A stretch of DNA of 63,660 nt, the filler included, from Dugesia japonica (Eukaryota), in NCBI GenBank assembly GCA_001938525.1. It is 7 parts of 7 records of this genome, joined end to end, with 100 filler letters (N's around TTAATTAATTAA, not from the genome) between each part and the next. Parts side by side here need not be neighbours in the genome. Positions count along the whole stretch, not along the records: positions 54,616 to 63,660 come from MQRL01617673.1; 6 more parts are not named here. One strand, written 5' to 3'. The translations under genes were made by a program, and so were the position numbers. Numbering within the stretch: the first letter of the stretch is position 1; each line of letters opens with the position of its first letter. Positions 11,960-63,660 of the stretch are shown one piece after another. Below the pieces are notes generated by a model. That model was not told where the DNA came from and searched no databases. It worked only from the letters and a program-made list of their open reading frames with translations.

Positions 11960-13435
11960 TTAAAATAAAAGCTTCGATCAACATTTTTGTTTTTTTTATT
12001 GATATTTGATAACAATTTGATTTTTCGACCTTGTTTTCTTCAAGAATTGACTTTTTTATTGATTCAATATTTATTCTTAATATTCTTTAGATAAATTTAT
12101 TTTTACTAAATTTTAATCGGTTAATTTTAATTTTTATTTAATTATTAAAAATTATATTTATTTTAGGATTGTTTTCTTTAATTAGTGATTCTTCATGTTT
12201 TTTTCTATGTAGTGTAGAAATGTAGCCTGTACCTAGTGTTTTCCATGTATTGTGATGTTGTTCTTATGAAATTTTATGCTTGTGTTGAAAGTGTTTGAAG
12301 ACTTCACTTTCTTTTTGTTTCAAATGTTTCTTAATTCTTGTTCGGATGGTTCTGCATGTTTCACATATATATGTTTCTTGAGAAATGGCGCATGTTATTT
12401 TATAAGTGACATTGCATATATTTTTTTTATCATAAATGCATTTGGGACCACAAAAAGTTGGCCTTGGTTTCTGTAATTGGATGCCCAAAGGTGTTTGCGT
12501 TTTGAAAATACTTCTTGGATTGTGTTTCAGTTTAGCATTTGCTATTATAATCTGCATGATTTGGCTACATTTTTCATTAATAAAAGGTAATTTAATAACT
12601 GTGTTGAATTTTGGTTTGATTTTATTTTGTTTTATATTTAAAGATAAATATTTCGATATAATTTTATTTGGATAGTCATTACTTAAAAATTTATTTTTTT
12701 TAAACTTGAGAGAGATCAATTTCATTTCTTCATTTGAAGAAAGTCTCTCAGCTCGAATTCTTTCATCTTTAATTATACCAATTTTTTGACTGATCGTCGT
12801 ATTACTACTCCAAGGTAATATATGTTCACTGTGAAATGGTTTCATATATAATTAAGTAGTATCCCCAGGTTTCTTTTGAATTAAAGTGTCCAGAAAAAGG
12901 ATCTGAAAGTCAATTGATTTCTCTAAAGTGAATTTAATGTTATCATTTATACTGATGGCTAATTCTAAAATGTNNNNNNNNNNNNNNNNNNNNNNNNNNN
13001 NNNNNNNNNNNNNNNNNNNNNNNNNNNNNNNNNNNNNNNNNNNNNNNNNNNNNNNNNNNNNNNNNNNNNNNNNNNNNNNNNNNNNNNNNNNATTATTGCT
13101 AGAATAGAAGATAAATTATTATCCATTGCTAGACCACCTTTTTGTTTAAAAAGTTGTTCACCGATGAAAATGCTATCAAAAAAAGAGACACAAATTGATA
13201 AAACATTTGAAATCATTTTTTGGGATCTCTGGAATATCTGTATGCTCTTTGTATCTTTCAAAGAAGCCACTTACAATATCAATGACATTTTCAGGTCCTT
13301 CAATTGGAATTGATCAATATAGATTTATTACATCTAGTGAACCAAATTCATCTTCACTCTTCCATTCATAATTTTTAATTCGTTCGATAAACTCATAACT
13401 GTTCTTTAAATGTGTTCACTCATAAAAATGAATGC
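11960..13435 (-). mobile_element. Penelope-like retroelement remnant (RT + GIY-YIG endonuclease)
   Basis: FGSLDVINLY (~13320-13350), KQKGGLAMDNNLSSILA, PFLDT, KPFHSEHILPWSS, then NVTYKITC..TYICETCRTIRTRIKKH (GIY-YIG). Confidence 0.88.
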
Positions 13436-22674: not shown

Positions 22675-24379
22675 TATTTTATGATAATAAGAATTGTGGT
22701 GTTGAGATCTTGTATTTCCCAAATTAAATAAAAAAACTATCCAACAATAAAAATGTTTGAATGTTTCATAAGTATATTCAATTATCTAAATATTTCCATA
22801 AAAATTGTATTTTTCTTTTTCATCATTGAATATAAAGCTTTTGCTCGAATTATTACTATTAATAAAAACAGCTTGAATTTAGTATTCTAGTGGGATTATT
22901 TATTTTCTATTCATTATCATGTAGAGCTTTTTACTCTCAGCAGCCATTATATTGATTTTAGTGCTTTTAACCCTTTCACATATACAAAAAATTAATATTT
23001 AGGAAATTATGTTAGTAATGCACGTTTAAAAATTAAACTAAAGTCATAATTCGTATAACTACAAACATAAATCAATACTACCAATATTATTGAATTGGTC
23101 TGCATTAATTTCCACGAGCTTTAGAAATTAATGAAGCTACTGAAGTAGAAAATATATTTGATTCAAATATTTCCTATGCTTTAATACAGTGTTTGTCAAC
23201 ACAACTGATACTGCAAACCAGTAAAAGTTTTAAGCTTATATTGCAGACCACAAAAAAGTTGCATAAAAAATGTAAAAAAGTGCAGGTCTTTTTAGTAATT
23301 CGCTGACTAATTACCTAAATTTTAGGTACAGTATAACAACACCAATTTCATATAACTGACAGAAAGTGCTGGCAAATGTAAACTCTCAATCGTACTAGAT
23401 GAATACATAGGACTTTTTACTTTAAGCAATTACTCGGTGTTTTCAGTTGTATGAATTATTATTGCCATTAAAAAATGTGTAATAATAATTTAAAGGTTGT
23501 AAAGTTATGTTATAAATATAAAGTTCACCACTAAAATTTTTCTGCGAACCATTGCTTTAAAAGGTTAAAGAAACTACATATTCATTTGCTTTTAATTCNN
23601 NNNNTTCTAGTTGTTTTTTAAATTATCGGACAATTTTTACGTAATATTTAAACTTTTTTTTTATTGATTTTCTTTAGAAGATTATTGTCAAAAATTTCTA
23701 AGCTGCTAAACCGAAGTAAAAAGTTAAATAGTATAAATTCTCCAGTATAAATTAGTGATTATTACAAGTTATGGATTCAAATGTATGGTATTTCAATATC
23801 ACTTTGTTATATTATAAATAGACTNCCAACCACTACAAATCAAGTTGATAAAATTGACATTAAATTTCTAATAATTTGTAATAAATATGAATTTCTAAAA
23901 TTTCTACTTTTGCATCATAATTTATTTATATAGCAATTGTTTTTAATCAATTATAAATAAAAAAAATTACCTATTTTTATTATTATAAACTCTAAAACGC
24001 CATTTCAATGTATATTTTTGTAAATCATGTTTTGACAGAATATCTAATCCTTTTAAAAGCGCTTAAATATTAAAAGTTCTGATTGTATAACTAATTATGA
24101 AATTTCTCCAATAAATCAAATTAATAAAAAAAATTCAATAAAGATCTGGAAAGACCTGTTAGAACATTAATTTTTTGATCAATTGATTTATTCATCAATG
24201 GTTCACACATAACTCTCTCCCACCATTATCATTATCATTATTTTTTTCCAATTAAATTCTAATAACATCTATGTATATTTTATTATATGTATTTACATGT
24301 ATTCTATTTAATTAAATGTATTGCGGAATAGTAGCAATAACTTATGTTTAGCTTTAAAATTTATTTTATTGTTTTTTAC

Positions 24380-25966: not shown

Positions 25967-26609
25967 NNNNNNNNNNNNNNNNNNNNNNNNNNNNNNNNNN
26001 NNNNNNNNNNTTAATTAATTAANNNNNNNNNNNNNNNNNNNNNNNNNNNNNNNNNNNNNNNNNNNNTTTATATAATTTTGGGTTCAACTTTTAATAAAAA
26101 AAAGTATTTTGAGCATTTAAATTTAGAAAAAATATTCTTAGTATGCGATCGTTGTCAGAAAAAAAGATTGCTGAGCGGCCGTTAATAAAATTTTGCGCAC
26201 CACTGCCTTACGTTAATACAAGTTGAAAGTATGTTAGAATCATTTAATTTGATGTTAAGAATAAATTATCATAATTAAATAATCTGAATATATCATCTGA
26301 AAATAAATTATTATTTTTAAAGAGTGTTAGATGAGTTTGTTACACTCATCGTTGAATTAATAAAACCAACACTTGAAAAGGTTAAAAGCTAACTGAAAAA
26401 AACAAGAAACAAACAAAGAAGAATTCAATAAAGAATAAGATAAAGCAGAAGCATACAAAGAGGAAACATATAACAAAGAAACAGGTAAAGAAACAGTTAA
26501 AGACCGAGTTAAAAAAAACTATCAAAAAGCTTTGGAAAGAAACTTTCAAATGTTATGGAAAATGGGTCAAGATATAAACAATCTCTCTGTTTGTATTTAA
26601 ATTATCATT

Positions 26610-26927
26610 ATGAAATTTAAACAAAGTCTTCCATTTTTTAATATATTGCTAACGGTTCAAAAAGAGTCTACAAGGGAATTGTTACAGTTATTTCCAACAT
26701 TTCTTAGAGATAGTTTGTTAGAGATTATTGTGAATATTGTTTGTGGTAATTTAATTATAAATAAAAAATTAACTAGAATTACAACGACATAGAAAATTAT
26801 TGCTTTCAATTTTAAATACAAAGAATAGAAAATTGATGAGAAAAATAATGTTTAAACACAAGAGTGGATTCCTTGCTGCTCTATTACCAATTGCATTAGC
26901 AGCATTAGGACTAGTATATTTTACTTA
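26610..26927 (+). pseudogene. Polinton small protein ending in GFLAALLPIALAALG
   Basis: Frameshifted ORF; ortholog at 56306-56625 (QKDGFIAALLPITLAALG). Confidence 0.65.
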
Positions 26928-26989
26928 AACAATGGATAAATTGCAATCATTGTCAAGAATTTATCTTAAATTTATATTAAATTGTTGTA

Positions 26990-27925
26990 ATGAACAAAAT
27001 TGAACGAATATGGACAGATCCAAAAAATCCAGCAGGGTTCATGAGAGTGGAAAAACTATGGAAATCAACACACAATTCAAAAACCCCGATGAAAAAGTGT
27101 TTATCGAACCAGCTAGCATACAGTCTGAACAAGCCAATGTTGGAAAGATTCTCAACAAGACCTTTGCTATTGATGATTTATGGCAAATGAATTTGATGGA
27201 CATAATATCTTATTCGAGTATTAATAAAGTATACAAGTATATTTTGACATATGTTGATGTATTTAGTAGATTTGAAAGAGTTGTACCCATAAAATCAAAA
27301 TCTGCTTATGAAATGGAAGCTGTGATCAACAAAATCTTTAAAGAGGGGCATCCAGGTAATTTCCCAACTGATTTGGGAAAAGAATTTTATAATTCAAAAG
27401 TCAAGATTATTATTATTCATCTCAAGATTAATCATTATTCTGTATTGTCTCCCTACAAAGCAGCATATGTTGAAGATTTAATCGAGCATTGAGTGTACAT
27501 TGAAAAATTACTTTGTAGACACTAGTAATAAAACGTGAATACATGTTTTATCGAAATTAATCGATACAAGTCACAAAAGATTAAATGGAGCAAGTTATGT
27601 TAATGTATCAATGAAATTCGATGAAATTATGGCTTTTGAGAAAACAATCAAAATTAATCAAAAAACCAAAATTTGAAGTTGGTGATCATGTTAGAATCTA
27701 AAAAATATCAGCTTCACAATTTATCAAGAATTTCGATAGTAATTGGAGTGATGAAGTGTTCCAAATATCAAAAATCAATACAAAGCAGAATACAATCATG
27801 TATGTGATTAAAGACATTGAAGAACATATCATTATCAGATCAAAGAAAATTGGATAGTATAAACAATTATTTGTAAAGTAGCATGAATTTTAAAAACCAA
27901 GTTGAATATGAGCATCTCAAGTAAT
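26990..27925 (+). pseudogene. Polinton retroviral-like integrase with C-terminal chromodomain remnant
   Basis: DPKNPAGF, DDLWQMNL, YILTYVDVFSRF, TDLGKEF, KPKFEVGDHVR, NWSDEVF, LFVK*. Confidence 0.9.
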
Positions 27926-27951
27926 AAATTAAACAATGAAGAAAATGAAAA

Positions 27952-30900
27952 ATGACCAAAACGAATAATTTCTTTACACTATTACCGAGTAATAGTTGTC
28001 CAAGTATTCATCCCCATAATAAAGCAAGTAGATCCATTGTTGCAAGTGAAAGTCCTATTTACTTGAATAAACAATGATGGACTTTACCCTTATTTATCCT
28101 GCTTTTCAATTATATAACAAATCATATTTCAAATATTTAACAGGTTATGATTATGAAAGATATGGAGAAATCATAATCAATAACAAAAAAAATCATTGTT
28201 GGTTCATGATGTTGGTTTTGAGGTAGTTTATAAGAGGTCATTGTTAATCACATTAAAACATCATAGTTATGTTGTAATATTTGACAATTTAGACCAGTGT
28301 TTCTCAAAGTGATCCTGGAACGATTCATGGGGTCCGTAGAGGAATTTGTCGGAGAAGGAGGNAGGTAGGCGGGGTCCGTGACTAATAAATTATGTTTTTT
28401 GTATTTTTGGTACATTATTTCATTAGTCAATTCCGTTTAGCAAATTTAATTGCTGATGCATATATAGTAGTCTCTTTTATGTGCCTTGTTTTAATAATCA
28501 CCAAACTTTCTGGCACGACTTAAAAAGTTAAATGTTTATTTTTAGATTATATCCTTTTTAATTTTTAACATATGAAGTTCATAACTTCTAAAATGTAATA
28601 GAACGATTTATGATTGTCTAAAAAAAATCTTCAATGTTTAGTCTCCTTAACAGTTTCAAGTCTGTTATTTTATTTTTCATCTACATCAAAAAAATCAAAA
28701 AATTACTATAAATTGTTTGAAAAAAAATTTTAAGTTCAAAATTTTAAAAATATTGAAGAAAAAGACAATTTGAAATTACAAATTATAATATTTTGTTTAA
28801 TTAATGTCGTTATTATCACAAAATTCTTATTTTCCGAGCGTTTTTCTTACCTTAGAACCAATAACAAGCGATATTTTTAAGATACAAAACTATAGCAAAA
28901 ATGATAAGCAAAAGTATGTTATTATGGTTATAAATAAACTTTTATATCTTTTTGATATAAAATTCATAAAAATATGCACTTATTAAAAAAGAAAATGGTA
29001 GAGTAATTTAAATGGTGTTTATTGGGTTCTTTTTGTTTTTGATTGTAAATGTTTTTAAATATATTTTCAAAAACAAAAACTTTAGCTTAATTTTTTTAGC
29101 CCCAAAAATGGTAGAACAACAAAAAAAAGTAAACAGTATAGGATTGAATATCTTATATATGGATTTAAAAGATCGTCAGAAGATCAAAAATTAACTTTTG
29201 TCTTGTTTGTCAAAATGTCTTATCAAATAGCTCTATGAAACCGTCAAAATTATTAAAGCATTTGACAAAAGTTTATAAGATAAAGATGTTTTTTTTCAAG
29301 AACTTAAAAGAAAATATGTAAACCAACCTAAATTGAAAGATCTATTTTTAACTGGGTCAAAACAAGATAATAATGGCTTACGTGCATAATATAACATATC
29401 GTTATTGATTGCTAAAACTGGAAAGCCTTATAGTATCGGTGAAAAATTCATTCTTCATGCGATTTGTGAGGTAATAAATATAGTGATAGACAAGCTGGCT
29501 TCATGCATTATTAAGAAAATACCCCGAGTACAGTTCAAAGTAAAATTGATGACATGGTTCAGGATGTTGGTTTTTTTCTATATGAATATTTAAAAAGATC
29601 TTTCTTTTCCTTACTATTTGATAAGTAAACACCACCTGGTAATGATGCCTTACTTTTGACTTATATTCGATACATAAAAGATGAAAGAATATGTCAGGAA
29701 TTGCTTTTCGCCAAAAATTTGGAAACTGACACTAAAGAAGAATCTTTATTTATTGTTTTGATGAAATATATTGACAAGAAAGGAATACAGTTAAATAATA
29801 TTTTAACAGTCGCTACATTTAGCTCCGGCGATGATAGATCGTCATAAAGGGCTTATAGCTTATCTCAGAAAATTAATTCCAAACATTATAGCTATTCATT
29901 GTGTCATTCAACGACAACATCGTGATGCCAAAAACTTAATTACGCAGTTACATAAATCACTGGGTTATGTAATAAAAGCTATAAATAGAATAAAAAGTAG
30001 CTCACTTAATTCGACGAAAACGACGAAGAACTTAATCATTTATGTTGTTACTGAAATTTTTTGGCTCTAGAAAGGTTCTTGTCTTGATAGGTTTTATTGT
30101 CTCTATAATGCTGTTAAAATATTTCTTGAAAAACAAATTATCAGTTACAACAGAAATTGACTGAATTAAGAACTGATATTTAAATTTAACAATATTAATC
30201 TGAAACTTCAAGGTGATGATTTAAACTTGATAAAAACCAAATCAGTTATATCTGGATTTGTTGAAAAGATTGACTGAAAAGCGGACTGACCAGTCGTTAC
30301 GTTACATGTGAAAGAAAATCATAAAAACTGTTTTGGTGAGCGCAATAACGTTTATAATTTGATATTTTATTGATAAACATGTGAGTCACCAACTTAAACA
30401 TACCGTCTGAAATGTTTTGTTATTTAACAACATATACACAATAATGAAAATAGAAAACTCAAACATTTAATTTTTAATTAATTAAGATTTTTATTTGTAT
30501 TAGATACGCATATCTTTGGTTCATAAAAGTTAAAAATATAATAAGGGGTCAATAAAAATTTCAAATCTTCAATTTGAAAACAGTTTGAGAAACACTGATG
30601 CCAAAATATTATAATTTAGTACTTTAAGGAATGATACAAATACGGATTCTATCATAAAATATCAAGACTTTAAAAACGATTATTCGATTGATGTTATTAA
30701 AATAAAATTAGTGATTTCAATAGAAACTAATACATTCATATCTTTACAAAACGAATATTACATGTCGAATTTGATCAGTTTGGTCGTTTCATCACAAAAA
30801 TTTGCAAGTATTATTTCCAAACACTTACTAAAAAAAGGATGAAGCATTCCGATTTTCGTTGTTGGAAAATGTTAAAAGAGTTACAATCGACAAGTTCTTG

Positions 30901-31262
30901 GCAAAATCATTGGGACAAAAATATACTCGTGATTATAGAAATCTAATTCATACAGAATTCATTGGTGTTAAAATTAATCACTAATCCTCACCAAATGTTC
31001 ATATATAGTAATATTGTTGAACATATAATTATTGGTGATGTTAATGTTCTTTTGTTCAAATCTTTATGGTTGGAGAATTATGAAGATGATCAAGTTGCTT
31101 AAATAATAGTCAAGAGTTCAATGTATTAACCAGTTGCAACTTTGTGTATAAACGATATAGATAAAAACGATATAGAAATCAATAAACGAAGTGACAGTGG
31201 AGAATTAATCAACTTTGCTCAAGACTCAAAAACTCATTTAACTCTACATTTTCAAAAACTAA
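27952..31262 (+). pseudogene. Polinton minor capsid (penton-like) gene split by a hAT insertion
   Basis: N-terminal NFFTLLPSNSCPSIHPHNKAS (F-x-x-LPSN motif); after the hAT, MFIYSNIVEHIIIGDVNV and DIEI..SGELINF..LTLHFQK C-terminal motifs. Confidence 0.8.
28295..30597 (+). mobile_element. hAT Buster/Charlie-type DNA transposon, defective
   Basis: 17-bp TIRs CAGTGTTTCTCAAAGTG / CAGTTTGAGAAACACTG (one mismatch); transposase motifs CLVC..SNSSMKPSKLLKH, IAKTGKPYSIGE, HCVIQRQH. Left flank ATTTAGAC fits nnnTAnnn but is not duplicated on the right. Confidence 0.9.
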
Positions 31263-31600
31263 ATGTTTAATCCTGATACTATTAAGCTTTATAGTACTAG
31301 TCAAACTGGTGGAGAATTGCCGTACTTTGAACGAAAACAGTTTCGATATGGATGGTTGCAAACAATTGGTCGATTTGCATTGCCTATTCTTAGACTTAAA
31401 AGAGCACAGGATGTAATAAATAATAAAGCAAAAATTTTACCCTCTCTCAAAACAAATGCTGACTGAATTCAAAGAAGTAACGAAAATAATACCAAAAGAC
31501 AACAGTATAAATGAATTAAAACGAAAAGGTGCTGGAATAAAGCGTAAGCATTCAAGTATAAACAAACAAATGAATGGCTATAGAAATATGTTTGAAAAAT
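31263..31600 (+). pseudogene. Polinton small basic protein with QTGG motif and amphipathic helix
   Basis: SQTGGELPYF..KQFRYGWLQTIGRFALPILR; partial ortholog at ~57855-58110. Confidence 0.6.
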
Positions 31601-32789
31601 GATTTGTGGAAAAACTGAATTATTTATTTTTGATTATCCAACTCCTGAAGATGTTATTGAATATGATTCATCTGAAAATATGTTTCCAATGAATTCAATT
31701 TCTGAAAGTAGAAAGGATTTAGAGTTTTTTATAAATGAATCACAAACTGACTATCTGGATTTGAATGATGCTTTATTGTATGTAAAAGTAAGAGTTGTTG
31801 ATAAATTTGGAAATAATTTCAGTAAAACGTCTGATATAATACCGAGCAACTGTGTTTTATACTCTGTTCAAAGATGTTGCCCTTCCATTCAACAATAACG
31901 AAATCGAAGGGGGTGATGAAACTTATATTCAAAAGACAATGATTGAAACTATTTTGAATTATAATGGAGATAGTAAGAATATTTGTCTTGCAGCAATTGG
32001 TTATGAAGATAAAGATGACAGATAAAATTTGATTAAATTATCAAAGTCATTGTCTCTATGTGGTTCTTTGCAACTGGATTTCATGGATCAACCAAAATAT
32101 ATTATTCATGGTGTTAATGTACACATTCAATTGAAAAGAGCAACACATAGAATGGGTTTAGAATCTGTAACTGAAGAACCAAAATTTTTATTGCTTGATG
32201 CCAAATTGATTGTTAGAAGAGTTTGAGTTGAATCATCTGTACTAACGGGTCATCAAATAGAATTTGGTAAACAAAATACAGTTTATCCAAGGAAATTATA
32301 GTTTATGCAATCAGTCAAATAGTACAGCGTTTTATAAGGAGCAAATCTTTGGAGGTCGTCGATTACCAAAAGTTTTGTTAGAAACATTACAAAGTAAAAT
32401 CGATAAAATGGACATTTTAAAACATCAAGCTTGAATTTTAATCGTTTCAATATGAAATTTATAACTCTTTCAAAAAACAGTGATTATAGAATTATATGCT
32501 CAAGAATTTGAAAATGATAATTATAACACATCATGCATGCAATCAATAGTTAGAAAAATGAGATATGAATTGTGGAATTACATTTGATGAGTTTAAAAAC
32601 GAATATCCATTCTTTACCTTTGTACTTGCTCCAGATTTTGATATTAATCAGAGTCAATTGCTCCAACATGGAAATATGAGATTGGATATCAAATTTGAAA
32701 ATGCTTTGAGTACACCAGCATATGTAATAATCTATGGAGTATTTGTAAATGAAATCCAAATTACATCTGACTGAGCAATATTAGTGTAA
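31599..32789 (+). pseudogene. Polinton major capsid protein
   Basis: CGKTELFIFDYP, DYLDLNDALLYVK, LQLDFMDQPKYI, FTFVLAPD, GNMRLDIKF, VIIYGVF..EIQI; several frameshifts. Confidence 0.88.
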
Positions 32790-32894
32790 AAAATTTCAAT
32801 ATCATGAAAATAGTTGACCAAAATGAAGTAAGTTTTGATTATTACTTTGATATTGCTTTAATAGTTCAATTCAGATAAATTAAATTGCTACAAA

Positions 32895-33175
32895 ATGGAT
32901 TGGATCAGAGTTTCTTGGTGTCAAGCTTCCATTTATTCCAGTCAATAAAGCCATAATTGTCAATACCCAATCATCAAATCTCAGTAAAGAACATTGGTTA
33001 GCAGTATAAAACAAGCCAGAAAATATACTGGTATTCCATTCATTTGGATTTTATTATTCACCAATGTTGTTCTCACAGCTGTCAAGATTATTAAAGCTTA
33101 TTGTATTCAATAGAGTTTGATTTCAAGAAACATTTACTACAACCTGTGGACAGCATTGCTTATTGTTATATGAAA
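32895..33175 (+). pseudogene. Polinton adenain-like cysteine protease
   Basis: IIVNT..EHWLAV, FHSFG, Q.....TTCGQHCL. Confidence 0.8.
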
Positions 33176-33355
33176 TAAATGTTTTAATCAAAAATTATGT
33201 TTTATATTGATTTGTTGTTATTTACTGGAGTTAGAATTACTAACACTTTGTTTTAATATTATGTAGAAATTGTGTAATTTTGATTTATAATAAATATTTA
33301 AATGAAATATGATTTTGAAAGTATATATATTAACTGCGCTAAAATGTTAATGTAT

Positions 33356-36725: not shown

Positions 36726-37382
36726 TCATAAAGATTGTAGCCGGGGTAGATAATAGAGCTCGTGCACCTGCTCTCTCTCTCTCTCTCTATTGAACAATTG
36801 TGCTCGATAATTTTCCATTGAATTTACGCCTGGTAAGGGCTCTCCGCATTTTTCTCGTAATCGTTGATTTTTGATTTGCAGTTGACGTACTGTATTTTGA
36901 AAATTCTGAAATAATAATTCGTCATCCTCTCGTTTAGCTTTTAACTCTGTTTTATAGCACTCCAACTCATTTTGTGCCTTTGTAAACTCTTTGACCTTTT
37001 CCTCATTTATTTGTTGGCTCTCTAACCTCACAGCGTTACTCCTTTCCAGTGCTTTCTCTAGCACTCGCATTTTCTCTTTGTGCCATTTTAATTCAGTCTG
37101 CAATTCACAAATTTGACCTAGATGTAATCGATCTTGTTCATTACGCTTCCTCTGCATATCCTCCAATTCTTGAGTCTGCTCGAAGCTTCTCTTTCTCCAA
37201 TAAATTAATTTCTCATTTTTATCCTGCCATTTAACTCTTTGCTTTTTCTCTTGTTCTAGCAAATCTTTATTTTCCTTTTCTAACGAGTCTATCCAATGAC
37301 TCATACGGTTTATAATGTCTTCTTTACCTTGCAATATATTTTCTAATCTTTCGATCTCTTTTCTATCAGGTTTGGGTTTCAT
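36726..37382 (-). CDS. Coiled-coil protein of unknown function, probable retroelement accessory ORF
   Basis: Open 218-aa E/K/Q/L-rich frame. Confidence 0.6.
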   Translation of the reverse strand: MKPKPDRKEIERLENILQGKEDIINRMSHWIDSLEKENKDLLEQEKKQRVKWQDKNEKLIYWRKRSFEQTQELEDMQRKRNEQDRLHLGQICELQTELKWHKEKMRVLEKALERSNAVRLESQQINEEKVKEFTKAQNELECYKTELKAKREDDELLFQNFQNTVRQLQIKNQRLREKCGEPLPGVNSMENYRAQLFNREREREQVHELYYLPRLQSL

Positions 37383-37937
37383 GCTTGCATTTTTATGTTT
37401 ATTTCTGTTCTGGGGGTTTTCTGGACATCATTTTCTAAAATTTAATAATTTAAGAATAATTTAATAATAAGGTCTTCATTTATTTATATTAGTAATGTTT
37501 TTGTAATAATTATTTACATTTTACAGGGATTTCAAGATAGATTGATTTAAGTGCAAATTTTCTTTATTTGAAAGTTTTTCTTTGTTTCTTAGTTTAGTAA
37601 TATTGATAATATTTTTCTATTTTATTAACAGTTTACAACCTTCTGATTCCACATACTTTATTTCTGCTTTTATAAGATAAAAGTCTTTGCGTTGCATTTT
37701 TACAGAATTTTGTGAATACTAACTGTTTACACTTGTTGTAAATTTTTGTTATTATATACAATTCAACTGATTAAACATTTCTACCATATCCAAATTATTA
37801 CTAAAATAACTGATCTGATAATTGTTTCATACATTTATTACTTCTAACTACTAATCAATGTCATAGTAAACTAATTTTTCTTACTTTATCCATTTCAAAA
37901 TAATTATTTACAAAAACTCTCATATTACGACTTCATT

Positions 37938-39521
37938 TTAAAAATCATTCCAATCAGACTTTCTTTCTGAGTCGAACACCAATTTAGGTGCATGCAAATG
38001 TCTATCATTTAGATTTAGTAACTCTTTCCGCAATTTTATTCCTTTATATTTTCCTCTTCTGATTTTTAACGCTACTTTTGTAACGAATATTATACAGGCT
38101 GCTGTTATTGCCCTAATTGTTATACCGATAAGTCTTGCTGACCAGTTCCGTTCTTTTCCTATCACGTTTGCAGTAGTTACCACCTGATGTTTCAACTCCC
38201 CGTCCGCTAAAATTTCTGTCTTTGAACTGATCCTTGTTAATTTCTTTAACCATTTATTCATATGTTCCTCTTGTTCCTTGTTTAACACATTCCATTGTTC
38301 CGTATTTGAATCAGTAGTATTGATCTAAATTCCATTTTAATTCTTTTTCCAATTCTGTTTGCTTGTGGTTTCAGAGATGTTTCTGTTAATTCTCTTTTTC
38401 ATAACTGTTTTTAAAACGATGTTCGATTTTCTTGTAATTATTCTCGGTTTATTACTTACTTTATTAGGTTTTCTAGATGATAATTTCTTTTTATTCCGTA
38501 GAAGTACATGCTCGATTTCTAGCCATGGTTCTTTTAATTGAAATAATTTTTTCGTTGTTCCGACAGGTAACTTTAACCGTTTTTTAGCTGACTATTTCTC
38601 TTATACTGCCCAATCTTGGAGATATAAGTATTGTGATACAAACATTTATCGTAACATATCTGTTTCTATTTTGAACTGAAGAACTGGATATCTTAAAATT
38701 CTATCTCGTCTTTTTCTTGGAAAATCTATTTCAATTCGACAGATATCCTTTCCTTCTAATTGAATTATCTTTTGTCTATGCCAATTCTTTAATCCATCAC
38801 TTTCCAATACTAACCCTGTTAATCCAGTAAAATCTATTTTCTAATGTTGTGATATATAAATTACTTCTTGTAATAAGCAATTTCCATTATTGTCTCCCAA
38901 TGTTGGTAGTCTTAATTCCCGAATGACGTATGAAATTTGGATAATTTTGTAATGATAGGTGCTGTAAGCCCTTCTTTCTTTAAATTCCTTTGACTTTGTA
39001 TTGCTTTTCGTTGTCCTAAATTCATTACTCCATACTTCCAATGTCGGTCCGTCATATTGGATTGCATAAAATTGTTGTACTTTATCTGTTACTCCTAACT
39101 TTTCTAATTTCCAATAATTTTTTTCCAGTCTTACTTGTATTGAATGACACTTACTTGATATTGCTGGTGTGATCGTAAATTCAATAGAAAATCTATTATT
39201 ACTAGCACTTCTCGTAACTCTTTCCAACCCTCTTTTCGATACTGTCAATATTCTATTATGCGAGTACCCGATATACATTCTATGTTCCGTAAAAATATCT
39301 TCATAGTCCAGACATTTATCTCCGTTTACAAACTTTAAGGTTACTAAGATTATTATAACATATATCCATTTACTCATCATTTTCAGTGATCGGTTTGCCG
39401 AATTAGTTGTTTTTGTAATTCTCTGTAAATTGTTTTCTTTCCATTCATTCATCGTTGTCATTTTAACTCCCGTATTTGCCAAAAACATTGTGATTAAGAC
39501 CATTAAACATAAGACAAACAT
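37938..39521 (-). pseudogene. Candidate env-like type I membrane protein, disrupted
   Basis: Signal-like MSKWIYVIIILVTLKFVNG; frame continues past the stop at 38841 to RKRR (38706-38717); C-terminal hydrophobic LIGITIRAITAACIIFVTKVAL followed by KIRRGK. Confidence 0.45.
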
Positions 39522-41018
39522 AGTCGTTGCTGTTGTGAAGTATCTAAACCCAGTTGTTCTGTTCCATCTTTGTTTTTGTTTTTTGCCAATTTCTTGAGCA
39601 TAATTTGAGTCAATCTCTTTGCGTTCATTTCCTTGTTTATCTTTTGCTGAAAATTGTAGTAATGCAGAATTTTGTCTTTCTTCTTGTTTCGTTGATCCCC
39701 TTTAAAATCTCAGTTTATCTTCTGATTTTGTCGATTTTTGTTGGGACTTTGTCTTTTGATGTGTCTCTTGCTTTCCAACTCTTCTGCGAGTCCAAGCATT
39801 TCAGATTTTTTCTAAGCTTTTGAGATCTTCCTCTTCAAGGAAAGATTTACAATTTTCAATTTCTTCCATTAGTACTAAAAGTACTTCAGCACATTGTACA
39901 ATTACTTTCTTCATGCTTTTTAGTTTGTCAGAAGAATCTTTTACTGTTGAGTCTATTGTTTCAGGTTGTTGTCGTTTTTTCTCTTCGGCCGATTTCTTGA
40001 TCTTTAATTCCAATTTCTCTCTTGCTTGAGTTGGTTTCCCTTGTCTTTGATTCTCTCTAGATATTGTTGCCATACATCCTCTTTTATTTTTTTCATCTCT
40101 AGTGAATCTGATTCGCTAAAATGTGGAGCACTTCCAGAGTCTTTGCAGTATTCCAAAAACCACTCTTGATTACTACCGTAAAATGCATATCACTGTCTTC
40201 TTCACTTTGTGATATATTATTCCTATATATTTCTTTTCTTTCTTTTTCTTGTAGAATCATACGATTACTTATTTCATCAACTTTCTCTATAGAATTTTGT
40301 AGCGGTCTTTTGTTATTTTTATTTTTTCTTGATTTGTTTAGCGTGCTTTGACTTTTACTCTTCACAGTTTGTTTTTCTCGTTTAAGCGGGCTTTCAAATG
40401 TTCTTTGACATTCTGATCTTTTAATTTATCGAACGTCTGATAATCTTCTTGGTCTAATTTTGCCTCTTGTATTTCTTGTTTATAATCTGGTTAAACCTTT
40501 AATTGTTCCTTTGTTTTCCGTTTAAACTCATGCCATTTTTCTATATTTTCTAACGATTTTAATAATTCTTTTTGATCGCGAATTTCTTGATTTTTGAGAT
40601 AATCTTTCCACATCTGTTTTAGTTGCTGTTTTGTTTCTTCTGTAATTTTAAGATCAATGTTACTTTCTTTAAATTTATCATACAAATGCNATTCATTTTA
40701 CAGTTCTTGTAATGATTTTCCGAGATTTTACTTATTATACATTGGCCATTCTTTAAAGTCGTTTGCTAATTGTAGCGATCTTTCTTGGTTTTGACAGTTT
40801 TGATTTCCCATTTGCTTCCGCTCCATTTTTCTCTTCTCCTTCTAGGTAAATCGACATCCTTGGCGATCCTCCTTTGTTCATTCTTCTTGAATTTCCTTTG
40901 AATTTTCCAAATCTCTGATGATACTTTATCTTCTTCTGCAACTTCTTTATTTTCTATTTCTTGAATTTCTTTGTTAATGTATTTATTTTCTATTTTATAA
41001 ATTTTGTTTTTGATTTCT

Positions 41019-54162: not shown

Positions 54163-54758
54163 TAATAATAATAATAATAATAATAGTAAACGTTTTTAAA
54201 ACCAAAGAATATATTAAAAAAACCATCTTTCAATATTTGTTCAGAAACTAATATCTGCCATTAAATTCTCAATAAATTCTTCATTTCCTTCTGTGCAAAA
54301 AGACATGCACAAATGACGCATATTTGAATACATAACCATGTTGAAGTTTGATGAGCATATTTCACTATGATAATCTTTTAACAAATTAAGATTCCAATAA
54401 GTTTCAAATTTTTCATTTGAATCTTTCAAAATCATCTTCATTTCTTTCTTATCATTATCAATATTTATCGATTGAAAATGATTTTCTCTACAAATTATAT
54501 TTATATTTACTGATTNNNNNNNNNNNNNNNNNNNNNNNNNNNNNNNNNNNNNNNNNNNNTTAATTAATTAANNNNNNNNNNNNNNNNNNNNNNNNNNNNN
54601 NNNNNNNNNNNNNNNGAAAGATATCATGTATTCATCATCATCGTCGATAACAACATCTTGATTAAATAGTTCTATTTCTTTCAACATTTTATTCTGTTTT
54701 TCTGACAGAATTACATCATATATTTTTGAAAAGTGTACAATGCTTACAATAACTTAAT

Positions 54759-55220
54759 TTAAACAATGGCATTTAAATTATTAATTAAACTAATTAATTC
54801 TTTTAATATTTCATCAACAATTGATCGATAATAAAATGTTTTTATTCNAACTAGTACAATCTTTCCACTTTAAAATAAATTAACACATATTGGATCATAT
54901 TTTGAAATTCTTAATACTGGAAATATTTCTGGTTCATAGATACATTTGATTACTTTGTATAATTCATATAAATTAATCATAGTTCTCAAATCATGGATAA
55001 CTGTAAGTGATTGTAATTGAATATTTTGGATATTATACTATAAATCCTTTGGTCTTATTGGTTTCTTACAACCCATGATTCTACAACGTCCTGATTGAAA
55101 GAAAACAAGGGTATACTTGTCTGTTTTCTCTACTACTTGAGCAGGTTTTGCACTGGGAAATCTCATTTTTCTGGTCACTTCCTTATCAACGTTTCTTCTG
55201 TAATTAATATTTGCAATCAT
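54759..55220 (-). pseudogene. TATA-binding protein (TBP)-like gene inside a Polinton, two in-frame stops
   Basis: One frame of 153 codons plus stop: repeat 1 IANI..TLVFFQSGRCRIMGCK; repeat 2 IQNIQLQSLTVIHDL..INLYEL..CIYEPEIFPVLRI..CVNLF*SGKIVLVxIK, matching TBP YEPELFPGL..LIFVSGKVVLTGAK. Confidence 0.8.
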
Positions 55221-55310
55221 TATTTATGAATAATTCTTTGTCAATCGTGTATATATACCTGTATAAACAATATTAATTCAATTGATACGTTTTAACAAGC
55301 ATAAATTATA

Positions 55311-55931
55311 ATGGAATTAAGAAATGATGCTGTATATCAAATTGTTGAACCTAGTGGTAGTGGAAAAACGTGGTTTGTATGTAAATTATTGAAATCAAAC
55401 TTGTTTAAATCGCAATTCAATAAAATATATTAGCACAGAGGTGCAAATGAAGAGCATGGAATAACTCAATCAGCATTTTGCGATATAAAATTGACCATAA
55501 TTAATGGGTTTGATGACAATTGGAGCAAGAGATTGAAAACAGGTGATGTTATTGTTAATGATGATCTGTATCAAGAAGCTAATAAAGAAAAGGATGTTAA
55601 TAATTTATTCACAAAAATTTCAAAACATTGTAGTGTTACTGTAATATTCATTACACAAAATCTATTCCATCAAGGTGGTGATCATAGAACACGTAATTTA
55701 AATGTTCAATATTTGATTATATTTAAAATTCTAAGAGGCTAAACTGTTGTGGATATTTTAGCAAGACAAGCGTATCCAAATAATCGACAATTTCTATTAG
55801 ATTCATTTAAAGATGCAACAGTAATGCCTCATGGATATATTTTTCTGCATTTTACTCAGCAATGTACTGATGATCTTAGAGTTCGAACTGATGTTTTCAA
55901 TCCAAATGGTTTTACAATTTATAAACAATAA
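55311..55931 (+). pseudogene. Polinton A32/FtsK-like packaging ATPase
   Basis: IVEPSGSGKT (Walker A), VIVNDDL (Walker B), VIFITQNLF, HGYIFL; one frame with two stops. Confidence 0.9.
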
Positions 55932-56686
55932 AAGTAATTTGATTATTTCCTTACAAAATGTCTAAATTTTCTTAACTTTTAGTAGATCCTCATACAATTA
56001 AACCGGTTAGCAATCACATGACTAATTAACATGAATATATAAAGATAATATTGTTCCAAACGATATCAAATCGATAAAAAATGCGATCAAGACCTCAATA
56101 AAGAGAACAATAAAGAAGTCTTAAAGAAGTCGATAAAACGACGATAAAGGAAGCATTCAAAGAATGTGAACAAGGATCAAACAAAGAATGTGAAAAAGAA
56201 AAAGACAAAGAAACAGCCAAAGAAGAATGAAAACATAAAGATTCAATCAACTGGTAAATGTTTCAAGCTATAAACAATCTAACCATGGGTTAATCAATAA
56301 ATATTATGGCATTTCAACAAAGTCTTCCTTATTTAAAATTTTTTTAAAGGCTACACAATAGTCTACAGTGAAAATGTTACAGTCATTTACAAAGTTTGTT
56401 ATTGATGATTTATTAGGGATAGTTGTAAATATTGTTCGAGAAAATGCAATTCTCAACCAAGATAAAAAACTTATTTTACAACATCATAAAAAGCCATTGC
56501 TTTAAATTGTTAAAACTAAGATTAAGAAATTAATGAGAAAAATAATTTATAATCAAAAGGATGGATTCATTGCTGCATTATTACCAATAACATTAGCAGC
56601 ATTAGGATTAACAAATTTATTATAAATAATGATTAATAAAGAGTCATTATCACAAATTTATTTGAAATTTATCTCAAACTGTTGTA

Positions 56687-57825
56687 ATGGAAGCAATATG
56701 GACAGACCCAAAAGATTCAGCAGGATTCCAAGGAGTGGAAAAGTTATGGAAAGCGACAAAAAGCTCAAAAAGCGAGACAAAACAGTGGTTATCGAACCAG
56801 TTAACGTACATTCTGAACAAGCCAATGTTGAAAAGATTCCAAACAAGACCGTATAAAACCTATGGGATTGATGACTTATGGCAAATGGATTTGATGGAAA
56901 TGATTCCATATTCAAGAATTAATAAAGNNTACAAGTATATTTTAACATGTATCGATGTATTTAGTAGATTTGCAAGAGCTATACCTATAAAATCAAAATC
57001 ATCTATCAAAATGGAAACTGCAATCCAGATAATGTTTAACGATGGTCATCCAGATAATTTGCAAACTGATTTAAGAAAGGAAATTTATAATTCAAATGTT
57101 AAGAATATTATTAATCATCTAAAAATTAACCATTATTCCGTATTTTCACAACACAAAGCGGTATATGTTGANNNNNNNNNNNNNNNNNNNNNNNNNNNNN
57201 NNNNNNNNNNNNNNNNNNNNNTTATTAATCATCTAAAAATTAACCATTATTCCGTATTTTCACAACACAAAGCGGTATATGTTGAAAGATTTAATCGAAC
57301 ATTGAGAGATGCATTAAAAAAGTACATTGTGCATACTGGTAATAAGACATGGATTCATGTAATTCAGAAAATGATTGACAGTTATAATCATACAAGTCAT
57401 AAAGGATTAAATGGAGCAAAACCCATTGATGTATCATCTGACAATTCAATGAAATTATGGTAATTGAAACAAAAACCAAAAGTAATTATGAAACCTAAAT
57501 ATAAAGTTGGAGATCATGTAAGAATTTCAAAGACATCAGCTTCACTATTTATCAAAATTTTTAATAATTATTGGAGTGATGAAGTATTTCAAATTTCAAA
57601 GATCAATACCAAGCAGAACCCAGTCATGTATGTGATTAAAGATCATGAAGAAAATATTATTGTTGGAAAATTCTATGAACAAGAATTATAAGAATAGAAG
57701 AGCCATAAGTATTTAGAATAGAAAAGATTATAAAGTCAAAAGGAACTGGTAAATATAAACAATTATATGTAAAATGGTATGGTTATGAAAACCTACTTGG
57801 ATATCTTCATCTCAATTAGTTAACA
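56687..57825 (+). pseudogene. Polinton integrase with chromodomain (copy 2)
   Basis: LWQMDL, CIDVFSRF, LQTDLRKE, VERFNRTLR, KYKVGDHVRI, GKFYEQEL, FRIEKII..LYVKWYGY. Confidence 0.93.
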
Positions 57826-58108
57826 ATGAACAACGCGAATAATTTCTATAGAATTAGAACAGTATGTATCTGTATGGTTGCAAACAATTATTCGATTTGC
57901 TTTGCCTATTTTTAGACGTATTAGTGCAATTGGAATGAAAACAGCACAAGATGTAATAAATAATTAAGAAAAATTTTACCATCACTCCAAACAAATGCAA
58001 TGAACGAATTTAACGATTTTTTAGATTCAAATAAGCTTACAAAAATTATCTCAAAACCAAAGGGTGAAGAAATTCTTAAAAGAAGTGGAATAAAACGTAA
58101 TCAGACTA

Positions 58109-58942
58109 ATGATTTGTGGAAAAACAGATTTGTGCATTTTTGATAGACAACCAAGCATTAGATCATCAAAACCATAGTCTTTATGTGGACCTCTAGAACT
58201 AGACTTCATGGATCAACTAAATTATCTTATTCCAGGTATCAATGCTCACATTTGATTGAAACGATCAGAGGCAAAAATGTGTCTAGAATCCAAACTTGAT
58301 GAACCCAAATATAAAATATTGGATGCAAAATTAATGATTAAAAGAGTTCGAGTGAATTCATCAGTACTAACAGTTCACCGAATCGGATTAACCAAACAAA
58401 ATGCTATTTATCCTATAAGAACCAAGGAAATTGTAGCATATGCAATAAGTAAAGAAAGTTCATTATTTTATAAGGAGCAAATCTTTGGANATCGTAGATT
58501 ACCAACTTTTATTCTGGTTACATTTCAAGATGGAGAACGATATAAAGGAATTTATCAAATACGAAGCTCATTTTTCGATAATTTCAATGGTAAATCTTTG
58601 ATATTGTCTAAGAATGTGGATTTTAGAGAGACTTACATGCAAGATTTTAAAAATAATGATTATAGTACAACATATATGGAATCGATAGTTAGAAATATGG
58701 GATATCTAAACAAGAATATTAATTGTGGAATAATACTAGAAGATTTTAAGAACAAATATTCATTTTTCACTTTTGTCCATGCTCTAGACTTTTATATATA
58801 TCAGAGTCAATTACCGGTGCAGGGTAATCTTAAGTTGAGCATCAAATTCGATTTTTCATTAGTGGCACCAGCACATGTAATAATTTACGGAGGGTTTGAA
58901 AACGAGATTCAAATTACTGCCAAGAGACAAATATTGCTTTAA
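58109..58942 (+). pseudogene. Polinton major capsid protein (copy 2, internally deleted)
   Basis: MICGKTDLCIFD jumps to LCGPLELDFMDQ; the 228-aa C-terminal ORF aligns with copy 1. Confidence 0.88.
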
Positions 58943-59056: not shown

Positions 59057-59366
59057 ATGGGAAAAGAATGGTTAGAATTAGATTTGATTAGGAGTGTATT
59101 CATTAGACAAGATTGCATATATTCCAGTCAATTGAGCACTAGTAGTCAACACACAGAGCTCAAATCTCGGAGGTGAACATTGTTTAGCACCTGAATATAT
59201 CCTAGTATTTGACCCATTTGGATTTTATTATCCATCAATACTAGTATCGCAGCTATCGAGTTTATCCAAACCTATTACTTACAATAGAACACAGTGTCAG
59301 AAATTACTCGCTACTTATTGTGGTCCGCTTTGCTTATTATGGTTACGAAAACAACATAGCGTATGA
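59057..59366 (+). pseudogene. Polinton cysteine protease (copy 2)
   Basis: VVNTQSSNLGGEH, VFDPFG, Q.....TYCGPLCL. Confidence 0.8.
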
Positions 59367-60199: not shown

Positions 60200-63100
60200 T
60201 ATTTTCAAAATTNATGAATGATTATGTTCCTTTATGTAAAAACTAAAATTAGAAATAATAGATATAAGTAACGATGAACCCAAGATTAAGGTTGAGGTAA
60301 CTGATACTCTAGTTGAGATCCAGTTGTCGATCTATCTGTTAATTCAATTAATGATCCTACTGTTGATCTATTAGGTTCTTCTATAAATCTTGTTGCTCTT
60401 GTTGCGGATCTAGTTGTCGATCTATCTGTTAATTCAGTTAATGAACCGACTGTTGATCTATTTGGAGATTCTAAGGTTATTGATGATAAAATAGGAAGTT
60501 TTAAGGTGATTGACTAATGGTCTGATGATGATACTTTTGATAAGGAAATAGGTGATGAAGACGATGTTCTGAATACGTTTTTTCAAGAAAACAAAGTTGG
60601 ATGTTTTCTTAATCTTGATGAACCAATTGTTGAGACAGATTTACGTAAATACTATCGAGTATTAAAATTAGATGTTTTTAATTATAATATGAGAGAAATT
60701 ATGTTTTCTGAAAAATTAATTAAAAAATTATTAACATTAATTAAGGAAATGAAAAATGTAAAAATTTAATTTGGTATTGAAGTTGAATTTGTTAAGAATG
60801 AGGAAATTAAGACTTATAGGCTTTCAAATAGGGCTTTTCCATTGACCGATGATTTCTTTGATGTAGGCATTAAACAATTAAATGAGAAAATAGTATTAAG
60901 ATCTGAATTAGGTAGTAGTTGGATCTTAAACTGAATTTTAGAAATTTTTTTAAATCAACTAAGATAAGTAATATACGTAGACTCTCTGGAAGTAGCTGGA
61001 TTGATACTCCAAAAGATTTAAAAGATAAACTAGCTATAGTTAACGTTAAGATTACTAATGATTTATGTTTCATATATAGTATTATTGTTGTACTTAAGAA
61101 AGAAATAGTAGATAAAAAGCATAGGAATCGTGAGAAACAATATAAAAAATAACTAAGTGAGTTAAATTTGACCATACCGACATGCAAATGAGGTTGTCTA
61201 ATATTCCAAAGTTTGAAAAGGCTATCCCAGGACTTTCTATAAATCTCTTGTCTTGGAATTCTGTTTTTGTTGACGCTTGTAAGGATAATGAGTTGGTAAT
61301 GAAACATCCAAATTTGTATATAATTCACAGAATTAAGGTAGAGGGTGGTCAGAAAATTAATCTTTTATTGTTAGAAAATAAGGATAAGTTTCATTACACA
61401 CTGTAATAAATTTAAATAGGCTAATGAATCGCGATGTTAAAAAGAATGGGACGTGAATTCGATCTACTTAGTGTCCAAACTTCTTGAATGGGTTTAGAGA
61501 TAAGACAGCGTTTAAAAAACATGAACCTCTTTGTGAAAGGATTCAAACTGGTACTACGTTGTATAGAATGCCTGATGAGAAAGAGTTAATATTTAAGGAT
61601 TACTCTAAGATGATCACTCCTCCTCTTGTAATTTACGCTGATTTTGAATCCGTTTTAGCAAAAGATCCAAAATACTTTCAACGACATGAACCGATTTCTG
61701 CTGGACTTTTACTAGTAAATAATTTTACTAATGAAAATAAGTATTATCAATTCATAGGTTATGATTACATTACCGCTTTCTTACAAATGATTGAGGAATT
61801 AATTAAAAACATTGTCCAACCTTATTATGAGAAAAATAGTAAAAAGACAATTATAATTTCACATGATGAGGAAATAAGTTTTAAAAGATCTACGATCTGT
61901 TATTTGTGCAATAAACAAATAATTAATCCAGTANNNNNNNNNNNNNNNNNNNNNNNNNNNNNNNNNNNNNNNNNNNNNNNNNNTTAAAAGATCTACGATC
62001 TGTTATTTGTGCAATAAACAAATAATTAATCCAGTAAGAGACCATAATCATTTTACCAGTAAATATATAGGACTTGCTTCCAAATGTAATGTAAGTAGGA
62101 AAATAAGGTTTGATCTTCCGGTTGTTTTTCATAATTTAAAGGGATATGATCTCCATTATATATATATTGAAATACGGTCTTAGTAATTGTTCAAATTGTG
62201 AGATTTCTTGTATTCCACTTACTTGTGAAAAATTCTTAAGTTTGACTGCACATATATCTAAAGTATCAGTAAAGTTTATAGACAGTTACCAATTTATAAA
62301 CTCTTCTCTTGATGCTGCCGTTAAGACAATAAATTCCACTCCATTAACATCAAAGGAGTTTAATGATAGTAGACTTATTAAGACTAATGGGATTTTTTCT
62401 TATAACTTTGCGACTAGTTTAGAAGTGTTAGAGGAAACATTATCATTACCACCAATTTGGGAAGGAGTTTCTGAGGAAAATTATTTGAAAGCTGTTAAAA
62501 TGTGGGAATTTTCTGGTTGTAAGAATCTTTTAGACTATATGATGGTCTATTTGAAACTTGATGTTTTTCTTTTGACTGATTTCTTTCTGCAATTTTTAGC
62601 TAAATCTTTAGAACATAATATATTAGAATCACTTAATTTCTGCCTTGATGACTTTAAATGAACCAATTGAGCTTTTGATCGACAATGATATGTTACTTTC
62701 TTTGAAGGTGGAATTAGAGGATGTCTTACTTTTGTGAATAAACATTATGTAGCTACAGATGATAATACTGAGCTTCTATACATAGATATTAATAATTTAT
62801 ACGGTTGGGCTTAAAGTCGAAAGCTTCTTTATAAGAACTTTGAATGGATTTATTCTGACTTGGAAAACGTTTTTATCGATTGTAGGACTTTAGACTTAGA
62901 TTCATTGTCTTATGGTTATAGTGTTGAAGTTATTATGTTGATTTTTAACAATTTACATAACAATTTAAGAGATTCGCCAGTTGCTGCTGAAGAACAATTA
63001 GTACGAGGTAAAAAATTTAAAAAATTATTACTTACACATCATCCAAAGAAAAACAACGTAATACATTGGAGATTACTTCAATTGCATTTACAAATTGGGG

Positions 63101-63660
63101 TTGAACTGACTAAAATTCATAGGGCTGTAAAATTTGACCAAGATTATATATTCAAGGCGTATGTAGATAGAAACACTGCATTAAAAAGTAAAAATGAGTT
63201 AGATAAAAATTAATTTAAACTACTCAATAATAGTCTTTACTGTAAGACTGTTGAAAATCTTTAGAAGAGGATGAATCTCCGTCTCTGTAACTCTGATAAA
63301 AAGTGAGTGGCCTATACTTCCAAACCGAGTTTTAGGAAAACATTTAAAATTGATAAAGATTTAATCGCTGTTCAACTTAATAAAGATGTTATTTGTTTGG
63401 ATCGTTCGAGTTAAATTGGAAAATCTGTACTTGATTTATCTAAGCTTAAGATGTATCAGCTTCAGTATATAGATTTAGAAAAATACCGTAAGGAAGAGAA
63501 ATGTTGTATAAATATTGTTGCCGGCTACACAGATAGTTTCTTTCTAGAGGTTAAATATATTAAATTAGAGAAATTGTTATACTTAGTGGTTCAAGATAAT
63601 CTTCTTGACACCTCAAATTATGCTAAAGATCATCCACTTTTCAATAATGACTTGAATTCT
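60200..63660 (+). pseudogene. Polinton protein-primed family B DNA polymerase, degraded, runs off the window
   Basis: VIYADFES (~61628), RDHNHFTSKY..CN, VVFHNLKGYD, FIDSY, YIDINNLYGW (~62779), KLLNNSLY (~63217), YTDSF (~63526). Start position approximate. Confidence 0.93.

Follow-up and report, generated by a model that had tools for sequence, protein, structure and literature searches.

Polintons (Mavericks, adintoviruses) encode capsids but not an RNA polymerase. In beta- and gammaherpesviruses, virion genes are preceded by a TATA variant, TATTWAA, which is read with host RNA polymerase II (Pol II) by a viral TBP mimic (vTBP; ORF24 in KSHV) that keeps the intercalating phenylalanines and has a polar DNA face (PMC12529657). 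At 752 aa, KSHV ORF24 is a long protein that binds directly to Pol II, depends on five further viral proteins and is predicted to be incompatible with TFIIB (PMC12529657). NCLDV TBPs have kept the TBP fold and lost the regulatory signature of the N-lobe (Ravarani et al. 2020, PMC7221094). According to the same source, the basic patch of TBP for TFIIA, TAF1, Mot1/BTAF1 and Brf1 is largely on helix H2 of the N-lobe, TFIIB is contacted by two C-lobe glutamates, and NCLDVs with a TBP mostly have a TFIIB of their own, the contact glutamates (the first acid, in the NCLDV figure) being kept in ~40% of viral TBPs of that kind (PMC7221094). The string "transpos" does not occur in the text of that paper.

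Among the closest known systems is a TBP label on the map of a MELD virus with an adintovirus-like PolB (Fig. 5 legend in Starrett et al. 2021, PMC8502044; preprint 10.1101/697771), i.e., a TBP-like gene on a Polinton-related genome. It stands there as a legend label; the text consulted neither surveys a family nor presents a structure, an analysis of residues or a promoter box, and the labelled gene may or may not belong to the family described here. The original prediction for our locus, made from sequence, knew of no earlier description. This stands for the family, its cut-down lobe and its box, of which we found no characterisation in the non-subscription literature searched; it does not stand for the label itself, which was already in print.

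We describe a TBP-like gene in a dead Polinton from Dugesia japonica. Our preferred reading, which we consider probable, is that it is a dead copy of a minimal Polinton TBP whose intact relatives would act as a one-protein switch for late genes through host TFIIB and Pol II. Such a protein would work much as herpesvirus vTBP does, as a viral TBP mimic reading a TATA variant before virion genes with host Pol II, and yeast positions V122, V161 and L205 are polar in both (PMC12529657). It is not, however, a member of the herpesvirus vTBP family (ORF24/UL87/BcRF1), whose long proteins carry a Pol II-binding N-terminal and a DNA-binding C-terminal domain: the Polinton TBP has ~150 aa and no extra domain, and it keeps the TFIIB acids.

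A broken TBP gene in a dead Polinton

The window, by which we mean the whole stretch of 63,660 nucleotides that was analysed, contains a TBP-like frame of 153 codons from ATG to stop, interrupted by TAG at codon 61 and TAA at codon 117 and with one ambiguous base (N at 54848, codon 125). Its two TBP-type motifs, TLVFFQSGRCRIMG and YEPEIFP...VNLF*SGKIVLV, are present as originally read, and so is the packaging ATPase, whose ATG at 55311 lies 90 bp from that of the TBP gene, head to head with it (Table 1).

With the stops written as X, the window protein matches the Pfam TBP family (PF00352) at 40.1 bits, E 3.4e-10 (curated cut-off, 22.9 bits), and archaeal TBP structures at E 2e-7; the frame is therefore beyond chance. 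A profile built from the window protein and ten relatives retrieved 35 PDB TBP sequences at E 1e-12 or better. The AlphaFold2 model from the same profile alignment (pLDDT 90.1, pTM 0.79) is a two-lobe saddle spanning the whole chain. TBPs headed the Foldseek results for this model (TM by query 0.61-0.74), with only 20-25% identity to cellular TBP. A VIA structure search over 48,161 chains gave five rows at Z of at least 8, all of them TBPs (Z 10.5-12.5, rmsd 2.5-2.9, 144-147 aligned residues; the best at Z 12.5 with rmsd 2.9 over 144), the next row being at Z 6.8. The TBP fold expected of the repaired protein is thus borne out by the model. The proposed repair itself is not: glutamine, suggested as the ancestral residue at both broken codons, is found in only 3/151 and 4/164 aligned relatives.

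The window copy is dead. Its two stops fit general decay, since the neighbouring genes are broken to a like degree: protein-primed DNA polymerase B (pPolB), rve integrase, ATPase and cysteine protease occur together in the window element, and all are broken. The same four core Polinton genes are intact in L004, L006 and L067, three of the related loci described below. The putative capsid gene has two stops and lacks its N-terminal third, and the putative minor-capsid genes of the relatives are absent from the window element. Genes at the capsid positions are conserved (403-429 aa and 338-376 aa) without a Pfam match; the labels capsid, minor capsid, core and DEDD-like are our presumption from size and position. 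In the 90-bp spacer, TATATATA points toward the TBP gene and TATAAACA toward the ATPase, back to back; we infer that the former would be an ordinary TATA box for host TBP.

Table 1. The TBP-like gene and the Polinton features around it (positions along the window).
Feature	Position	Strand	Remarks
~250-bp repeat	52857..53085	.	Opposite in orientation to copies at 51067-51311 and 43532-43732; cut by N gap 52569-52824; may be the inner portion of the left terminal repeat, the right end of the element lying beyond the window
Unassigned frame(s) following the TBP gene	54244..54753	-	Interrupted by N runs; no convincing Pfam family
TBP-like gene	54759..55220	-	153 codons; stops at codons 61 and 117; Pfam, AlphaFold2, structure searches
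TATA-like TATATATA	55250..55257	-	Starts 37 nt upstream of TBP ATG; from sequence
TATAAACA box	55262..55269	+	49 nt upstream of ATPase ATG
Packaging ATPase (A32/FtsK-like)	55311..55931	+	Two stops; 67% to the L004 ATPase, which matches Pfam Pox_A32
TATAAACA inside ATPase 3' end	55920-55927	+	From sequence
Small conserved gene	56269..56622	+	Two stops; homologue of ~113 aa in L004; TATAAACA at 56269-56276, with the gene after it
Retrovirus-like integrase	56684..57789	+	rve 2.9e-9; frame change and stops
TATAAACA inside integrase 3' end	57754-57761	+	From sequence
Small-gene remnant, then C-terminal two thirds of putative major capsid protein	57857..58942	+	Homology to relatives
Adenovirus-type cysteine protease remnant	59088..59345	+	One stop; L023 homologue matches Peptidase_C5
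Protein-primed-type DNA polymerase B	60961..63660	+	DNA_pol_B_2; at least 10 stops, several frame changes; continues past window end

A second decayed Polinton remnant lies at ~26400-33200 of the window (+ strand). Its identity to the first is 68-77%; what remains of integrase, capsid and protease genes is accompanied by TATAAACA at 26573, 27858, 31557 and 33944, with no match to TBP or ATPase. It was set aside as a test of the link between box and TBP, its left part being seemingly lost. Along with an intronless GPCR gene and retrotransposon-like remnants elsewhere in the window, it points to an animal genome rich in AT.

Intact relatives and their linkage to Polintons

Ten homologues of the window TBP were found by word search, the best of them intact (P0002; 153 aa, 84%); identity to intact relatives is 38-84%. 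At a threshold of E 0.001, an HMMER library search yielded 282 representatives, 83 of which reach 1e-10; among the 149 new ones listed, all sequences without genomic context, 143 best match the Polinton-linked group and six best match cellular-type rows. Genomic context came from a metagenome scan with 49 TBP loci. Thirteen of the 31 closest (L001-L030, L033, some of which are near-duplicates, as L002-L004) match an ATPase, integrase, capsid, protease or pPolB, 13 more have only accessory genes common to Polinton-linked loci, and the remaining five, all short contigs (1.1-1.6 kb), gave no match. Among the more distant TBP loci, L035, L036, L039 and L042 also carry Polinton genes, while the other 14 loci look cellular. 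The intact relatives within loci have 144-188 aa and consist of the saddle only.

The TBP gene is found in different arrangements: in L004, L006, L024 and L028 it precedes the ATPase in tandem, in the window, L001 and L025 the two genes diverge, and in L019, L023 and L067 it follows the protease. L067 was retrieved through its capsid gene alone and has an intact TBP of 150 aa; this near-complete Polinton lies inside a bacterial metagenome-assembled genome, most likely as a binning contaminant.

With its pPolB, rve integrase, A32/FtsK-like ATPase, adenain-type protease and putative capsid genes, the window element resembles known Polintons. It differs in carrying a TBP: a search of viral contigs by pPolB gave 15 distant elements, none of which has one in the 4-16 kb examined of each, so that TBP marks a Polinton subgroup. 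Scans of the viral contigs with the close TBP family, L035, L036, the capsid alignment and the ATPase alignment found no relative.

Intact TBP relatives are under purifying selection. In 11 of 13 pairs, which overlap and are not independent, dN/dS is 0.05-0.35; of the two others, one gave 1.14 on two synonymous changes and one had none. A quick tree of 75 rows places the window protein in a Polinton-linked group of 30 rows (SH-aLRT 96). On 38 of these rows, an AU test rejects a grouping of animal TBPs, represented by four rows, with the window protein and the two relatives nearest to it (p 3e-75), and is compatible with a single origin of all Polinton-linked rows (p 0.52). The deep position of the group is unsure because of long branches, and some animal rows may be paralogues.

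These data bear on whether a host TBP retrocopy could have landed once beside a Polinton and then decayed. Such a copy would be intronless and broken, as the window gene is; yet there are intact relatives, linkage to Polintons recurs in different gene orders, dN/dS is well under 1, the AU test rejects an animal placement, identity to cellular TBP is low and every neighbouring gene is broken to a similar extent. Polinton linkage and the tree refute this account, to which we assign practically no probability. The original view of a viral gene rather than a host retrocopy holds, with intact copies beside Polinton genes and no nesting within animal TBPs.

One quick tree places L035 and L042 among eukaryotic rows, the other places them nearer to the Polinton rows. 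At L035:457-963, a near-canonical full-length TBP with six close relatives abuts an ATPase of Polinton type and has a gene with a NADAR domain upstream of it; this TBP is possibly a separate capture. The Polinton-linked contig L042 has two TBP-domain genes in tandem, a divergent one at 2065-2868 (268 aa, E 9e-7) and a near-canonical one at 3043-3582 (180 aa, E 1e-42). Archaeal-type TBP genes are present in the viral-collection contigs L050-L056, L058 and L064, and five of these group together in the tree.

A shortened N-lobe, retained TFIIB-contact acids and an altered DNA face

Cellular TBP and the Polinton TBP share the two-lobe saddle, the YEPExFP and FxxGK signatures and three of the four intercalating phenylalanines. 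The Polinton protein differs in its short or absent helix H2, its short H1, a proline at the F99 position, six changes on the DNA face and its low overall identity.

The first repeat had been described as shortened, and the model agrees. Its strands follow the TBP order, but the stretch joining the last strand of the N-lobe (45-51) to the first of the C-lobe (64-77) contains no helix. The linker G50-Q70 has 20 residues in the window protein and a median of 22 over 141 rows, being 25 or shorter in 93 and at least 31 in 15 of them, as against 33-34 in 22 of the 23 measurable cellular-type or near-canonical rows; more of it is retained in L024, L026, L028, L029 and L036. Helix H2 is short or absent across the family. 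With linkers from 14 to ~34 residues, the family is a natural deletion series of TBP, and can show what a universal transcription factor is able to lose as long as selection maintains its fold and its TFIIB dock.

Both TFIIB-contact acids are acidic in 158/172 aligned rows, 143 of the 172 being rows without genomic context. No TFIIB family match was found by Pfam among 82 ORFs of the elements, a count in which the loci are incomplete and a remote TFIIB-like gene could escape. In both respects the Polinton TBPs differ from those of NCLDVs, with which they share the fold and the loss of the N-lobe signature (PMC7221094).

It is conceivable that the TBP acts with an unrecognised partner encoded by the element, forming an orthogonal system comparable to the late complex of herpesviruses or to giant-virus TBP-TFIIB pairs. 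TFIIB-like genes do occur in almost all TBP-bearing viruses (PMC7221094), and the commonest neighbour of the TBP gene, of ~112 aa (e.g., L007:1503-1838), is found in 13/31 close loci. However, the ORF scan gave no TFIIB, the acids are far better kept than in viral TBPs with a TFIIB of their own, and L023, L036 and L067 have no match to the ~112-aa neighbour. This gene has no Pfam match and no usable ESM Atlas match. We consider an element-encoded partner improbable.

On the DNA-binding side (yeast numbering from Table 1 of PMC12529657, mapped by alignment), three of the four intercalating phenylalanines are kept: F41 (yeast F116) in 141/146 rows, F100 (F190) in 169/172 and F116 (F207) in 166/170. 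The position of yeast F99 is proline in 130/136 rows, and N69 is mostly retained (121/132). The six changed positions are V71 to N6 (98/134 rows, the least conserved), V122 to R47 (139/146), T124 to M49 (162/166), N159 to S/T71 (163/167), V161 to T/S73 (164/168) and L205 to N114 (161/170). R47, M49, S71 and N114 are identical across the ten main-group rows compared; the TBPs of L036 and L039 differ from the main group at five DNA-face positions. A new surface under such strong constraint suggests a new DNA preference rather than decay.

The retained TFIIB acids and the cut-down regulatory lobe would also suit a protein that serves mainly as a decoy, binding host TFIIB or TATA boxes and thereby damping host transcription. 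A decoy would have no need of a new and strongly conserved DNA face, though, and the element-wide box described next would go unexplained. Acting as a decoy therefore seems to us a poor candidate for the main role, and competition with host TBP, raised originally beside the steering of Pol II, is the weaker of the two ideas.

A box upstream of assembly-type genes

TATAAACA was first spotted by eye as recurring in the upstream regions of element genes. Within 120 nt upstream and on the sense strand, ATAAAC precedes 34 of 46 curated starts of assembly-type genes and TATAAAC 26 of them, in a count that uses the loci where the box was first spotted. In antisense, TATAAAC precedes 0/46 of these starts, and it occurs in 3.6% of random windows. 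Twenty-three of the 34 ATAAAC sites lie 32-51 nt before the ATG, the distance of a TATA box plus a short leader.

L067 served as an independent test: its 11 TATAAAC share a single strand, and 6/8 curated starts are preceded by ATAAAC (permutation p 0.002). By automatic gene calls, ATAAAC lies upstream of 36/58 genes (5.9 expected) across six loci with a TBP and of 12/159 genes (10.5 expected) across 15 loci without one. Neither TBP genes nor two classes of accessory genes have the box upstream (0/31 starts). For TBP genes, ATAAAC was found before 0/19 starts, and an ordinary TATA-like box before 12/19, such boxes being common in AT-rich DNA.

Where the box falls within the preceding coding gene, it fixes synonymous codons: Tyr-Lys pairs use the box codons in 7/8 cases near gene ends versus 0/14 elsewhere, and Ile-Asn pairs in 9/15 versus 4/30. 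The C after ATAAA is retained across elements whose ATPases are 37-78% identical. Counted over the whole window, the TATAAACA 8-mer is not enriched (16 versus 11.6 expected). The signal is positional, since over-represented 7-mers at the whole-locus level did not include the box.

None of the eight L036 genes has ATAAAC upstream, and L036 and L039 lack the box. These Polintons with a divergent TBP have TTAAGC at TATA distance before several genes where others have ATAAAC; in L036 it lies upstream of 5/8 genes, which is not significant once the choice among hexamers is corrected for (p 0.18; p 0.064).

Box and TBP gene may simply be co-inherited, since the elements with a TBP form a single group of relatives, from which the controls without one stand far apart. 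The chief rival to our preferred reading is that a host factor, either host TBP or a Forkhead protein, reads the box and that the co-inherited viral TBP acts elsewhere, e.g., at the termini or at a few promoters: the comparison with TBP-less controls leaves ancestry and function unseparated, and binding of the box by the viral TBP is a prediction. The box starts with TATAAA, the canonical start of a TATA box, and lies where a TATA box would be expected. ATAAACA is close to the Forkhead consensus and fits a Forkhead site. Yet a purely host-read box would not be expected to be missing from the TBP gene and both accessory classes, its C is kept across elements of 37-78% ATPase identity and fixes synonymous codons, and the lineage with a different DNA face (L036/L039) lacks it. 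We regard reading by a host factor as rather unlikely.

RNA reads

Three oligo-dT runs from one study, which share their species label with the best-matching DNA run, cover the TBP gene through a related copy, mostly at <95% identity, and a fourth run barely does. Reads without a stop number 15/15, 18/18 and 20/21 at one broken codon and 35/35, 20/20 and 32/32 at the other. The strand bias is the same over the TBP gene, over the spacer and over the ATPase, which points the other way, so the RNA of the TBP region may be read-through. What the reads show is an unbroken related copy, not TBP mRNA. A sequencing-run search returned no RNA run among the matches listed, the best DNA runs sharing about a quarter of the words.

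A possible one-protein switch

Under our preferred reading, the viral TBP gene would first be transcribed with the help of host TBP, acting at an ordinary TATA box. The product would then bind (T)ATAAAC before the packaging and putative capsid genes, as its conserved polar DNA face and the co-occurrence of gene and box suggest, and would recruit Pol II by docking host TFIIB, consistent with the kept acidic pair and the lack of a TFIIB match in the elements. With helix H2 short or absent, it may also escape control by Mot1/BTAF1, TAF1 and TFIIA. The word "late" assumes timing from gene class. The element-wide box lends support to the idea that such a protein might steer Pol II to promoters of the element, and L036 and L039, whose TBPs differ at the DNA face, lack the box. 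The proposed switch reduces to one small protein and a site of 6-8 bp.

More tentatively, we hypothesize that a large group of Polintons has its own early-to-late switch, in which the DNA face of one TBP of 150 residues, pared down to saddle and TFIIB dock and beyond the reach of host TBP regulators, co-evolves with a private box (ATAAAC; perhaps TTAAGC in the sister group); this broader proposal seems to us quite possible, if less secure than the reading of the single gene. If this is true, no viral general-transcription system would be smaller, and TBP and promoter would form an orthogonal pair plugging into host Pol II. A dedicated TBP with its own promoter box would amount to a virus-like temporal programme and would strengthen the case for Polintons as viruses.

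Further observations in the window and in related loci

Direct copies at 43532-44564 and 51067-52566 of the window represent an element end of ~1-1.5 kb with short internal repeats, part of which is inverted at 52857-53085; a further inverted pair is found at 23980-24217 and 45684-45992. A run of ORFs at 36726-43432 (- strand) with weak integrase-related matches is probably a retrotransposon remnant, and 12264-12851 (- strand) has a weak GIY-YIG match. Cargo genes in the related loci include a ubiquitin-conjugating enzyme, a dual-specificity phosphatase, a parvovirus-type phospholipase A2 domain and C2H2 zinc fingers (L004:225-719, L007:4008-4316, L026:36-410, L028:1754-2236). The window also holds an intronless gene of the rhodopsin GPCR family at 7719-8822 (+ strand).
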